Shown one piece after another: positions 4,126 through 42,033 of a DNA stretch of 64,000 bases. Origin of the DNA: a virus (Duplodnaviria; Caudoviricetes); IMG/VR virus record IMGVR_UViG_3300027766_000001, one strand, 5' to 3'. The notes beneath the pieces were generated by a model. That model saw only the letters and a list, made by a program, of their open reading frames with translations. It made no database searches and was not told the origin of the DNA. Numbering within the stretch: position 1 is the stretch's first letter; each line of letters opens with the position of its first letter. The position numbers and the translations under genes were made by a program.

Positions 4126-5235
4126 CTATTTGTCTTTAATACGCTGCCGTATGCTGGCAAGTTCTTTTGTAATAACTTGATCGATACTTTGTGGCATTCC
4201 ACCAATACGAAAGGTATTGTCGTTCTTGATGATGTTCAGGCTGTGTAACACCTCGTTAATCAGAGCACCTTCTTTACGGCCACGGTTAAACGAGTATTCC
4301 ACTTCCAGTAAGAAGTCGACCAACCAGCTGCGTGCAATGATCCACGCCCAACGACTTTGACGCATATCCAAATCAATGGGTAGGCGAATAGCGTTGTAGC
4401 CAGACTGTGTAAAGGTCGGCATCATCATCAGTACGGCTTCCCAATACCGAGGTGTGCGTTTGAGCTCTTTGACGTTGTGCGCAATCACGTTATCGGCCAG
4501 TGTCATGTCATCCATTAGCCAGAACGGTTGACGAGGATTGAGACTGTGGCCTTTAATGCCGCGATACGCTTTGATGGTCCGGTTGATTAAAGCAATGTCG
4601 TTGTGTGACTTCACCAGGTTCTGTACCGGATAGCAGGCTACAAACTGTTGAATGGTCGGGACCGGTTTAGGGTTGGTCTCAGCCACCCACTGGTTGAACT
4701 TGAGCCACTGCAGCGCTAATAAAGGAATGTTAACACTGAGTACAGCAATACCACTTCCACCCATGATCTGACGTTTATCGAGCAGACCGTAGTTGGAGAC
4801 GTCATAAGGGTGACGGTGAACACGCACCGGTTCCATGTCATACCAGGGTGTGGTTAACGCTTCTTCATAGGTAGTCGACGTGGCGATCACAATCTCCATG
4901 ACGCTATCAGGGTAGAAGCTGGATTTACTGATGGTGCCGTAACTGGTACTGGAGGTCATTCCCACGGCATTGGCTAAACGGTAATCACGCAGACGAACTT
5001 CATCGTAGTATTTACGAACATCTTGCGCCGATAATTGTGTAAGCTTGCCCGGTAATTTTATTTGTTTGAGTAGCCTGCAAACCACGTGATTGTTTTGGAC
5101 GTGGAAAGTATTGCGTCTAAAATAATCTTGTGCACGCCCGAGGTTAAGCATAGCAATGTCCCGTAAACGGTCCATCTGCGGGTTCATCATGTTACCATGA
5201 TTGAGCTGCATATCGTTACTGAATAAGGTGTACAT
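4126..5235 (-). CDS. conserved chimallivirus protein (phiKZ gp52-like, putative virion protein)
   Basis: 369-aa minus-strand ORF between the DNA polymerase and chimallin, as in the phiKZ block; GAGG RBS. Confidence 0.65.
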   Translation of the reverse strand: MYTLFSNDMQLNHGNMMNPQMDRLRDIAMLNLGRAQDYFRRNTFHVQNNHVVCRLLKQIKLPGKLTQLSAQDVRKYYDEVRLRDYRLANAVGMTSSTSYGTISKSSFYPDSVMEIVIATSTTYEEALTTPWYDMEPVRVHRHPYDVSNYGLLDKRQIMGGSGIAVLSVNIPLLALQWLKFNQWVAETNPKPVPTIQQFVACYPVQNLVKSHNDIALINRTIKAYRGIKGHSLNPRQPFWLMDDMTLADNVIAHNVKELKRTPRYWEAVLMMMPTFTQSGYNAIRLPIDLDMRQSRWAWIIARSWLVDFLLEVEYSFNRGRKEGALINEVLHSLNIIKNDNTFRIGGMPQSIDQVITKELASIRQRIKDK

Positions 5236-39050: not shown

Positions 39051-39395
39051 TTATTTATTTGTGTTGATCTGTTCTGCAAAACGCATTGCATGGTACTGAC
39101 GTCCATAAGCCATGTCATCGGTGTGATGATACTTCTTATTGAGGATGGCAGTCTTCAACCCAGCACGAGTAATGCGATCAATGTTGCGCTCGTTATCCAG
39201 CACACTCATTGAAGTACGAATGTGACGATGACCAAACACTTCATGGGTCACTACAGAGCATTCGGTTTCCAGTAACACGGTTCCGATCTTGCTCTTCAGT
39301 GACACAATTACGTTTGAGACATCGACGTCCCGTTTGCCCAGCAGCAACGCTGTGAGACACAACAGGTGTTTCTTTGTGTAATCAATGGCTATCAT
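39051..39395 (-). CDS. hypothetical protein
   Basis: GGAGG RBS on the minus strand; 114 aa. Confidence 0.65.
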   Translation of the reverse strand: MIAIDYTKKHLLCLTALLLGKRDVDVSNVIVSLKSKIGTVLLETECSVVTHEVFGHRHIRTSMSVLDNERNIDRITRAGLKTAILNKKYHHTDDMAYGRQYHAMRFAEQINTNK

Positions 39396-39429
39396 ACCCC
39401 GCCTCCAGGACGGATAAAAAGCGGGTTAC

Positions 39430-39771
39430 TCACCCGCCTTTGATTTGTTTTTGTGCGTCCGCTAATGCTTTCTCCAGTTTAGAGATGTTGGCATTTGACG
39501 AATCGTTGTTTTTCGATGCGTACTCTTTGACTCGAGTAATCATCAACTTCTGTTTGGCGTAGGTGTAAGTCATCCAGGTAGCAAAGTTGATACCCAGATA
39601 CTCTTCTATCTTGTTGTCCAAATACTCATCAAGATAACCACCAAAGCCACTGACCAATAACGAATCCTCTTGCTCGACCTGGCTGGCCAGCGAGAACGGT
39701 GATAAATCAGCATCGTGGTCAACGATGCCGTACGTATCATCGTAGAGCTCCATCAACCGCAAGCGCGCCAT
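39430..39771 (-). CDS. putative tail/baseplate assembly chaperone, C-terminal (GT-like) domain; frame is open upstream to 39948
   Basis: IEEYLGINFATWMTYTYAKQKLMITRVKE resembles the small T-type domains of G/GT chaperones; the reading frame stays open 59 codons upstream of the ATG. Confidence 0.6.
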   Translation of the reverse strand: MARLRLMELYDDTYGIVDHDADLSPFSLASQVEQEDSLLVSGFGGYLDEYLDNKIEEYLGINFATWMTYTYAKQKLMITRVKEYASKNNDSSNANISKLEKALADAQKQIKGG

Positions 39772-39863
39772 TTCCGGATCACCCGCTAAGAACTTGGGAT
39801 CTGTTAAGGCCCGTTCCCAGGCCTCACTCCGGTCTTGGTACGCGCTACCGAAATCGTGGTGAA

Positions 39864-41489
39864 TCAGATGTCGGCTGTGTTGATAGAATTGTTCAGCATA
39901 TTCGCCAAGAGGGTAAAAAAAGCCCTTTCCATGTTTACAGGGGTGTAATCAGGGAACTGGTCATTGACCGCAGGTTGCTTTTGTTTACACGCCTGACAGG
40001 TATAGCGCGGCAGTGCAATCACACCGATGGTGACTTCGTTGATGTACGCGTTCACTTCCTTATAGAAGGATTCTTTGAACGACTCATCTTTGCTCAGTTC
40101 AGCCAGTTGGGTATAGATGTCTTCGCTGCCATCGATATAACCATCAACGTCGCCGTTGGCATCGAGGTAGTCAATGCGTGATACCCAGTGCGAATAGTTA
40201 CGCAGTGCCGAGATCGCCGCCTGCTTGTTGATGTATGCCACACGCTCATCACGGGACATGGTGTCCTTGAAGCTCAGGGTCACCGCATCTTCGATGTTGT
40301 CGATCCAGGCATCACCCGCTTTCATCTTCTCTTCGATCGACGGTGTGGCGAACACAACGCGGATACTCGGAGTGATGTTACGGATGTTGTTGTTCATCGC
40401 CGAGAAGTGCTCCTGGTACGCCAGAACCGACTCCGTGGTATGACCGCTACGACGACGAATGTGTGCACGCTGAGCGTCAGTCAGACGGGCGTTGTCGATG
40501 ATGCTCATGCGGTTGATGTTGACTTTATGAACGGCCACATCACCACACTTCACCGGATCAACCTGGCAAGGCTGCGCCAGTGTGTAACCTGAACGGAAAC
40601 GCGCCGCCATGTAACCAGCGATCAGCAGCGGGATATCCTGCACCTTGATCAGGTTCACCAACTCTTTCTTGTTGGCGTGACCGAGCGAGGTTTGGAAGAT
40701 CATGCCTGACAGCAGTTCCCACAGGTGACGCAGAATAATCACGTCAGAGTTAGAGAACACCAGACCCGCTGTACGACGACCCAATACCGATTTGGTATTG
40801 ATCACACGCGTATGGAAGTTCACCATCTCGTCTTCACCTGCAACCAGCAGCGTTACCCAGATACCGGTGTGCGGCGCAGGCAGTGTGATGAAGTCGCCGA
40901 TGCCCATTTCCTGGCGCGCACGCATCATCGCGTTCTTGCCGGTCAGACGTTCGCCTTTCTTGTGCTTGTCGTCTTTGATGTTCGGACGATGTGCACCGAT
41001 GACTTTGTCGCCAACCAGAATACCCTGCAGCCACTGGGAGTCTTTACGCATCACCGTTGGGGTCAGGCCGTTACGATACGCCATGTGGTTAATGGCGCTC
41101 TGTGTCGCCGCCAACCAGGTCATCGCCGCTTCCGCACCGCGCAGACGAATCATTTCACGAAACATTTCAGTTTCAGCCGAATCCGCCGCACCTTTATCGA
41201 TCTCAGAGATCAGGTCACCGATGGTGATCTGGTCGCCGTGCGCCACATGCAGGATGTCTTTCAGATCTGCATACGGGGTCAGGATCTTTTCCAGGATTGG
41301 TGACTCATACAGCGGGTCCAGTTCCGGGTCAGCTTCCGGCAGAAGATCTTCTTCCGGGTTTTCCGTGTTCAGTTCCGGTTCAACGATTTCGTTATCAACC
41401 GGCAGCGTTTGCTGCTGCGCTTTCTGTTCCAGCACAGCGTTAACGTCGAGTACCGGCTCGTCGTGTTCGTTTGGGATTTCACCTGACAT
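39864..41489 (-). CDS. conserved protein (phiKZ gp77-like), putative tail/baseplate-hub assembly chaperone
   Basis: Acidic N-terminus; CQVDPVKC and RYTCQACK Cys motifs as in T4 gp26/gp51-type hub assembly proteins; TAATG-coupled to the upstream gene. Confidence 0.6.
   Translation of the reverse strand: MSGEIPNEHDEPVLDVNAVLEQKAQQQTLPVDNEIVEPELNTENPEEDLLPEADPELDPLYESPILEKILTPYADLKDILHVAHGDQITIGDLISEIDKGAADSAETEMFREMIRLRGAEAAMTWLAATQSAINHMAYRNGLTPTVMRKDSQWLQGILVGDKVIGAHRPNIKDDKHKKGERLTGKNAMMRARQEMGIGDFITLPAPHTGIWVTLLVAGEDEMVNFHTRVINTKSVLGRRTAGLVFSNSDVIILRHLWELLSGMIFQTSLGHANKKELVNLIKVQDIPLLIAGYMAARFRSGYTLAQPCQVDPVKCGDVAVHKVNINRMSIIDNARLTDAQRAHIRRRSGHTTESVLAYQEHFSAMNNNIRNITPSIRVVFATPSIEEKMKAGDAWIDNIEDAVTLSFKDTMSRDERVAYINKQAAISALRNYSHWVSRIDYLDANGDVDGYIDGSEDIYTQLAELSKDESFKESFYKEVNAYINEVTIGVIALPRYTCQACKQKQPAVNDQFPDYTPVNMERAFFTLLANMLNNSINTADI
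39915..39921 (-). other. candidate -1 programmed frameshift slippery site U-UUU-UUU
   Basis: Minus strand GCT TTT TTT ACC in the gp77-like frame; the -1 frame TTT TTT TAC CCT... is open and continuous with ORF 39430..39771. Confidence 0.65.
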
Positions 41490-41938
41490 TACTGACCTTC
41501 CTTCTGTTGGTTCTGCGCAGCAACCGCTGCAGCGTGTGCGCGCTCGTTAGAATTAAACAGCGGCAAAAAGTAATCGTTGTATACGTTCATCAGTTCACTT
41601 TGAACAAGGACATATTCTTCATTGATCGCTAAGAACTGCTGGACGTCACCTGAACCCAGTGCATACCCCGCACGACCTGCGTGCTTCATGTGCAACTGTG
41701 CCAGCATCGGCTCGACTTTGTTAATGGTGGTCAGGACCGTTTCGATCCAGAGGTTTAAACCAGCAACGTTGTCGTGGAAGCGAATGATGTTAGGGTTCAC
41801 CGCCATCATACAAGCGTTACGGTACTGCGTGATCAGGTCAATCGTATAGACCCGGACGGTGTTATCCAGATATTCCCAGGTAGAATCGACTGGGGGTTTC
41901 ATGGCATCGGCCAGTGAGACAAGCGGTGTAGTAGACAT
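41489..41938 (-). CDS. conserved hypothetical protein (phiKZ gp78-like position)
   Basis: ATG 41938; stop overlaps the start of the next gene. Confidence 0.7.
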   Translation of the reverse strand: MSTTPLVSLADAMKPPVDSTWEYLDNTVRVYTIDLITQYRNACMMAVNPNIIRFHDNVAGLNLWIETVLTTINKVEPMLAQLHMKHAGRAGYALGSGDVQQFLAINEEYVLVQSELMNVYNDYFLPLFNSNERAHAAAVAAQNQQKEGQ

Positions 41939-42033
41939 AAGTTTGACGCCCTTAGAGAACAAAAAAGAATAAACCCTTCATATATTGTTGCGGTATATGT
42001 AATAGAATACCTAATAATGGAGCGAATGATCCC

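Follow-up and report, generated by a model that had tools for sequence, protein, structure and literature searches.

The 64,000-nucleotide (nt) stretch of viral DNA analysed here (IMG/VR virus record IMGVR_UViG_3300027766_000001; Duplodnaviria; Caudoviricetes), hereafter the window, carries on its minus strand a homologue of phiKZ gp77. This gene stops shortly after a run of seven T, and a small open reading frame (ORF) of 113 amino acids (aa) is called separately further downstream. The locus therefore raises the question whether these are two genes, or a single gene whose product would be made in two lengths, the longer one being reached by a slip into the -1 frame. From the sequence comparisons set out here, we consider that the recoding event is very probably real and that a programmed ribosomal -1 frameshift is its likely cause.

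Around the run, the minus strand reads ATG GAA AGG GCT TTT TTT ACC CTC, with the T7 run at 39921-39915. Counted from the ATG at 41489, the run falls as GC-T TTT TTT-ACC, which is the X_XXY_YYZ phase. The 0-frame stop is located 16 codons past the slippery run. On the other side, the -1 frame read from the T7 run (FFYPLGEYAEQFYQHSRHLIHHDFG...) is open for 161 codons, to a TGA at 39432-39430, and crosses first the gap of 92 nt and then the ATG with which the called 113-aa ORF (39430..39771) begins. The predicted products are a protein of 541 aa and a form of 525+161 = 686 aa. This arrangement had been proposed in a sequence-only reading of the window. Its coordinates and the phase of its U-UUU-UUU heptamer are correct on the sequence and by phase calculation, its two product sizes are right, and translation confirms that the -1 frame runs stop-free through the 92-nt gap into ORF 39430..39771.

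Conservation of the layout and of the -1 frame

Relatives were sampled among GenBank phages (tblastn), distant named phages, 9 Logan contigs and 56 IMG/VR contigs, the latter retrieved by means of an alignment of those family members that share the LWHSG[IF]W motif. No close DNA relatives emerged when the region was compared with GenBank phages by Megablast. Using tblastn, the 0-frame protein (P0001) was matched in 210 GenBank phage records. When the 0-frame protein and the -1 peptide were searched, identities were 68% for Salmonella phage SA002 and Erwinia phages pEa_SNUABM_37/48, 44% for the Agricanvirus group including RAY, and 32-35% for Proteus phage 10. In each of these relatives, the matches in the two frames overlap by 55 nt, and the sites, read directly, are GCT/GTT TTT TTT ACC.

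A T-run of at least five, at the homologous Phe-Phe (FF) position and followed by an open -1 frame, was observed in all 80+ relatives, at 20-90% protein identity. In every relative, the run lies 8-47 codons ahead of the 0-frame stop, and the -1 frame then continues without a stop for 150-194 codons, which specify a homologous peptide. The +1 frame served as a control and typically meets a stop within ~1-20 codons (it closes after ~10). The layout recurs in 65/65 metagenomic loci (9 Logan and 56 IMG/VR). Named phages that carry it are SA002, AH06, Proteus phage 10, 201phi2-1 (gp136/gp135), SL2, phiKZ (PHIKZ077), LucasX, SPN3US, PCH45, BONAISHI, RsoM3USA, Moabite, Bacillus phage AgentSmith and Halocynthia phage JM-2012. 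The sequence-only reading had predicted that orthologues would share a slippery heptamer and an open -1 frame, and the comparison bears it out, with no stop in the bridging frame among the 80+ relatives. More broadly, P0001 matches 1305 representatives of 50%-identity clusters. Among the 150 best family representatives, 139 end 8-34 residues past the FF motif (138 within 25), and in-frame fusion length is reached by 0/150. Taken together, the two-frame layout is more than chance, and these data strongly support a recoding event that extends well beyond the present phage.

This distribution also bears on a trivial explanation, in which the true gene would be one continuous ORF, broken by a sequencing or assembly error in the homopolymer or by a recent pseudogenising frameshift. 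Some chemistries are indeed error-prone at homopolymer runs. However, the layout is found over very deep divergence and no relative shows an in-frame fusion. Because more than 80 genomes and contigs, each sequenced independently, show it, sequencing error is excluded, and we give this explanation practically no chance.

A second explanation dispenses with recoding as well. The locus would hold two genes, the 113-aa ORF being translated from its own ATG at 39771 by initiation at a weak ribosome-binding site or by re-initiation. In this phage the ATG is preceded by a weak GGGTG, and all public records annotate two genes. However, this ATG (extension position 49) is replaced in close relatives, where the position is M, L, T or V, and the 48 codons ahead of it are conserved as protein, with third-position-biased change. 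In ten close relatives, pairwise differences at -1-frame codon positions 1/2/3 of the bridge are 0.21/0.16/0.50, so that the DNA separating the 0-frame stop from the annotated ATG bears the signature of -1-frame coding sequence. In an alignment of 57 extensions (A4), the best-conserved columns are near the N-terminus, with FFYP followed by H-x-x-x-x-F-G, and any plausible start comes after both motifs. Between the preceding -1-frame stop and the near-invariant Phe, there is no ATG, GTG or TTG in 40/57 loci and no ATG in 53/57, so that most relatives are without a start codon that would cover the N-terminal motif. In two loci, ATG is absent from the entire extension, and elsewhere the first one sometimes lies over 130 codons in. 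For phiKZ, no more than an 80-aa remnant (PHIKZ076.4) could be annotated, and the record leaves a 218-nt 'gap' ahead of it. Considering the coding pattern of the bridge, the motifs upstream of any start and the missing start codons, independent initiation is unable to explain the conservation. Two genes without recoding are thus very improbable, although independent initiation may occur in addition to the frameshift. The -1 frame appears to be a conserved coding sequence that is reachable only from the 0 frame.

The T-run is itself conserved at synonymous sites, which is a further point against two separate genes. In codon statistics over 78 loci, the first Phe codon is TTT in 78/78, and with few exceptions the second is TTT or TTC. 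A T also closes the codon before the run in 72/78, even though 11 amino acids (A, V, T, I, C, L, G, N, S, Y, H) are encoded there, and T_TTT_TTY is kept in phase in 72/78 relatives. As a background, TTT accounts for 38% of Phe codons in the same ORFs and T for 29.5% of third positions. Because synonymous sites are saturated at 20-40% protein identity, these values point to a constraint at the nucleotide level.

One relative departs from the common codon grid. In AgentSmith, whose host is Gram-positive, the T7 run (5061-5067 in locus L018) is one phase off and reads GTT TTT TTA, that is T_TTT_TTA. Its 0 frame encodes VFL where other relatives have FF, and the -1 extension is retained. The phase shift and the kept extension suggest that the slippery site moved within the codon grid while recoding was retained.

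Nature of the slip

In the proposed mechanism, most ribosomes would stay in the 0 frame and produce the 541-aa protein. At GC-U UUU UUU-ACC, a fraction would slip one base back, the two tRNA-Phe on UUU UUU re-pairing with U UUU UU. The slipped ribosomes would then read UAC CCU... and 161 more codons in all, giving a 686-aa form that shares its first 525 residues with the short one. Efficiency is expected to be low to moderate, because no stimulator is conserved, and if lambda G/GT is a guide, the long form is probably made in the smaller amount. The two forms may be needed at a fixed ratio, and the helical extension, with its long terminal helix, may serve as an extra interaction or oligomerisation module.

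As had been pointed out from the sequence alone, and as we agree, transcriptional slippage would have the same protein outcome. RNA polymerase, probably the phage's own non-virion multisubunit enzyme, would add one extra U on the T7 template run, and some mRNAs would encode the 686-aa fusion in one frame. The dominance of homopolymeric T7/T8 runs at the site and the lack of a conserved ribosomal stimulator are what such a process would leave. However, ~20 relatives have only T6 then C, and some have T5, which is short for a polymerase, and the T6 lineages still hold the in-phase heptamer T_TTT_TTC. In addition, the run stops at the same codon boundary throughout and never grows on its 3' side, which fits a phase-dependent, ribosomal mechanism. 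For these reasons ribosomal slippage is favoured, and we regard slippage during transcription as quite unlikely.

Several observations nevertheless weigh against a programmed ribosomal frameshift. No conserved stimulatory RNA structure was detected downstream of the site (RNAalifold, 13 relatives: consensus -1.46 kcal/mol), and the fold of the window's own sequence is no more stable than that of shuffled versions (z -0.11). The Shine-Dalgarno (SD)-like GGAAAGG noticed earlier just upstream of the heptamer is present here but not a conserved feature among relatives. Weaker sites occur in a few of them, namely G_TTT_TTY in Noxifer-like phages and T_TTT_A, with five T, in two small groups; they still carry the -1 extension. 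Finally, no proteomic data on the trans-frame protein were found in the searched papers. No conserved stimulatory element, be it a hairpin, a pseudoknot or an SD-like sequence, was recognised. Such an element is not obligatory for -1 frameshift sites, and lambda G/GT is not known to require a strong RNA stimulator. A -1 slip predicts a single junction peptide, ...ERAFFYPLGEYAEQFYQHSR, with AFFYPLGEYAEQFYQHSR as its tryptic form, and the phiKZ counterpart spans ...STFFYFGGLEVK. This peptide could be confirmed from existing proteomic data sets.

The predicted frameshift shares with lambda G/GT and P2 E/E' a -1 slip near the 3' end of one phage gene, from which a short and a C-terminally extended form are made with one start. 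A conserved -1 frameshift of tail assembly chaperone (TAC) genes, as in P2 E/E' and Mu gp41/42, was described by Xu, Hendrix and Duda 2004 (cited in PMC9024508). Here as in frameshifts of the lambda G/GT type, the arrangement is conserved far past the loss of sequence similarity. In contrast to these systems, the present protein has no sequence or fold similarity to G/GT or E/E' (Pfam, PHROG, PDB and BFVD, both parts). Its upstream part is 525 aa long against ~140 aa in G/GT, and its heptamer is U_UUU_UUU/C instead of G_GGA_AAG. Moreover, the gene is not beside the tape-measure gene; its neighbours are homologues of phiKZ gp78, gp79 and gp80 and small ORFs. Hence, the 'G/GT-type tail-assembly chaperone pair' of the sequence-only reading is acceptable as an analogy of layout, with a plausible role in hub assembly, but it finds no TAC counterpart in Pfam, PHROG or fold comparisons and disagrees in size and position. 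Neither part matched the Phage_TAC/GpE families by Pfam, PHROG or fold search, and no support was obtained for assigning the downstream domain to the short T-type pattern.

Gene 10 of phage T7 (10A/10B), which undergoes a -1 frameshift at G_GUU_UUC, offers another comparison. There also, a U-rich slippery site at a Phe codon near the stop yields a minor, C-terminally extended form. Unlike the present gene, gene 10 encodes a capsid protein with a short extension (~50 aa), uses a different site, and is known only from T7-like phages.

The upstream protein, its extension and their possible role

Sequence searches of both parts in Pfam, NCBIfam and the PDB returned nothing meaningful. In PHROGs, both parts belong to families of unknown function, PHROG 4585 for the upstream protein. 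A study of the core genome of nucleus-forming phages enters the gene as cg18 (Goslar gp081, phiKZ gp077, RAY gp267), a 'hypothetical protein' (PMC10299810 supplement).

An AlphaFold model of P0001 built with 46 homologues has a predicted local distance difference test (pLDDT) score of 83 and a predicted template modelling (pTM) score of 0.83. A Foldseek search of BFVD with this model gave about ten matches among T4-like proteins, each ~250 aa long and recorded as baseplate hub assembly protein, chaperone or hub subunit (E-values 7e-5 to 1e-3, probability 1.0, template modelling (TM) score by target 0.46-0.59). They align to residues ~180-512. 'Baseplate protein' rows in AFDB were weaker than the BFVD matches. 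When 46 members were scanned singly, PF12322 (T4_baseplate) was the top Pfam family, with matches in 3/46 (best E 0.0011, below the gathering score); P0001 itself has no PF12322 match in Pfam. In addition, PF12322 is carried by 85/100 of the nearest named ESM-Atlas clusters, and one Atlas structure row shows a TM score of 0.47 over 314 residues to a PF12322-bearing cluster. T4 gp26 and gp51 both belong to this family.

Other results speak against such a kinship. The P0001 model has no convincing match among solved structures in a PDB fold search, and hhalign against the gp51/gp26 alignment gave 25% probability, on the CPxC motif alone, which is not significant. The PDB fold rows are short helical or chance matches, and the proteasome rows among them (TM below 0.1) were rejected. 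Profile-profile comparisons of the family alignment A1 with T4 gp51, with gp26 and with their alignment retained CPxC only, at 8-25% probability, and were taken as no support. Because the profile-profile comparison is not significant, the data point to a remote relationship to PF12322 and not to membership. From the model and the weak profile matches, the upstream protein would be an enlarged and distant relative of T4 gp26/gp51. Hence, its earlier description as resembling hub-assembly chaperones has some basis in this distant PF12322 kinship.

Four cysteines, C308, C315, C498 and C501, are invariant in alignment A1 and probably form a Cys4 zinc site. The remote fold and profile likeness to T4 gp26/gp51 covers residues ~180-512, and cysteine pairs are conserved in both families. 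Compared with the T4 proteins, the present one has about twice the length and an additional ~180 aa at its N-terminus. For T4 gp26 and gp51, roles as chaperones or cofactors have been proposed (PMC9024508). These roles are non-structural, and the phiKZ-type proteins are apparently also outside the virion. According to its annotation, T4 gene 26 also has two nested products, 26 and 26', but through an internal start. Thus, T4 uses two paralogous genes and an internal start where a frameshift is predicted here. In the T4 locus (L084, 6480-8404), the end of gene 51 overlaps the hub gene 27 by 1 nt, gene 27 being in the -1 frame relative to gene 51; this overlap is probably ordinary coupling.

The extension is modelled as helical (pLDDT 80), its last helix having 40 residues. 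This long C-terminal helix covers residues 121-162 of a 163-residue query beginning at the two Phe of the slip site. Its fold matches are solely small, separately annotated ORFs of the jumbo phages Goslar, Psa21, RP12, Eowyn, Phabio and PA7. In the same fold search, the extension did not match GpE/E', G/GT or other chaperone families. A likeness to the C-terminal domain of gp51 was not supported, with a profile-profile probability of 0.2%.

As to function, a role in tail (hub) assembly is plausible because of the distant PF12322 relationship, and we put the gene's being a hub-assembly factor at slightly better than even. The protein would then be a non-virion assembly factor, distantly related to T4 gp26/gp51. 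In their records, phiKZ gp77 and 201phi2-1 gp136 are not flagged as virion proteins, unlike their neighbours. A preprint on the Goslar virion structure does not contain the name gp81 in its text and gives all hub and inner-baseplate density to other proteins. It stresses a T4-like hub architecture, the Goslar and phiKZ hubs closely resembling that of T4. A preprint on transposon sequencing (Tn-seq) in PCH45 does not mention the gene.

The genomic position argues in the other direction, since the gene sits among transcription and replication genes and not among tail genes. Its conserved neighbours are the virion RNA-polymerase subunit genes (phiKZ gp80 and gp79), gp78, the helicase gene gp75 and the non-virion RNA-polymerase gene gp74. 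The frameshift could therefore be real and the protein not a tail or baseplate factor. It would act instead in transcription, replication or head assembly, and its PF12322 likeness would reflect a shared ancient fold. The conserved RNA-polymerase and helicase neighbours leave room for such a role, to which can be added the hhalign score and a size twice that of gp26/gp51. On the other hand, the signals, though weak, are several and independent, and PF12322 is the only family to which they point. Furthermore, assembly of the T4 hub needs gp26 and gp51, the Goslar and phiKZ hubs are T4-like, and no other PF12322-like gene was identified in these phages, although no search was made for one. Overall, we consider a non-tail role somewhat unlikely.

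A wider and more speculative reading starts from the hub-assembly role. The short and long forms of gp77 would be, for phiKZ-type contractile tails, the hub-assembly counterpart of G/GT, a PF12322-type chaperone being needed in two forms at a fixed ratio. As a whole this proposal is rather unlikely. If true, T4 would satisfy the same requirement with two genes, one for the short gp26 and one for gp51, which has an additional C-terminal domain. The phiKZ-like phages, together with Bacillus and marine relatives outside the nucleus-forming group, would meet this requirement by recoding. Chaperones made in two forms would then be a general rule of long-tail assembly that holds in unrelated protein families, and a function would be assigned to a core 'hypothetical' gene of all nucleus-forming phages.

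Annotation and genomic surroundings

None of the GenBank records examined annotates a frameshift. In the freely searchable literature on Chimalliviridae, jumbo phages and phiKZ, no description of it was found. The earlier remark that no description of this frameshift in Chimalliviridae was known is in line with both results. In several papers, 'gp77' designates unrelated genes of other phages. The probable recoding of this gene adds to a known mechanism a case that is conserved over deep divergence, in a protein family new to it and without kinship to the classical tail chaperones. The phiKZ-like nucleus-forming phages are intensively studied, and cg18 is one of their core genes so far called 'hypothetical protein', for which a baseplate-hub assembly factor related to T4 gp26/gp51 offers a functional lead. 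The frameshift would also correct the annotation of the phages that carry the gene (the 210 tblastn records), the small downstream 'gene' becoming the C-terminal domain of a trans-frame protein. In phiKZ, the same would hold for the 218-nt gap and PHIKZ076.4. The features of the locus are collected in Table 1.

Table 1. Features of the gp77-homologue locus, in window coordinates.
Feature	Position	Strand	Basis and remarks
0-frame gene, 541-aa short form	39864..41489	-	ORF list and translation; homologue of phiKZ gp77, 201phi2-1 gp136, Goslar gp081, core gene cg18
Slippery heptamer T_TTT_TTT (U_UUU_UUU), phase GC-T TTT TTT	39915..39921	-	Sequence and phase calculation
Dual-coding overlap	39864..39914	-	0 frame: 16-codon tail TLLANMLNNSINTADI and stop; -1 frame: (Y)PLGEYAEQFYQHSRHL
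92-nt 'intergenic' bridge, predicted coding in the -1 frame	39772..39863	-	Carries part of the conserved H..DFG motif
-1-frame extension, 161 codons and stop	39430..39915	-	Joined to residues 1-525, predicted to give the 686-aa long form
Separately called 113-aa ORF, C-terminal two thirds of the extension	39430..39771	-	ORF list; ATG not conserved
Four invariant Cys codons: C308 (40568-40566), C315 (40547-40545), C498 (39998-39996), C501 (39989-39987)	39987..40568	-	Alignment A1
Hairpin GCGGGT-GAGTA-ACCCGC followed by TTTTTAT, overlapping the stop codon of the extension	39415..39437	-	Sequence

Upstream, the homologue of phiKZ gp78 (157 aa, 41962..41489) ends in TAATG at 41487-41491 on the minus strand, its stop sharing one base with the start of the gp77 homologue, an overlap suggestive of translational coupling. 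Downstream, the hairpin at 39415-39437 is probably the terminator of the gp78-gp77 operon. In the scan, this same hairpin appears at 39421-39437, on the + strand only. The next gene (39395..39051) begins 20 nt past the terminator hairpin, behind GGAGG.

Two observations concern the surroundings of the gene in relatives. In Halocynthia phage JM-2012 (locus L019, 2150-2554), the gene at the gp78 position is annotated as 'metallophosphoesterase' and is 'hypothetical' everywhere else; the JM-2012 annotation may be unreliable. In three loci of close relatives (L012, 5465-5857; L013, 5472-6272; L014, 5445-6245), I-TevI-like (PF20987) homing-endonuclease genes are found at variable positions slightly downstream of the operon, and are signs of mobile-element traffic.

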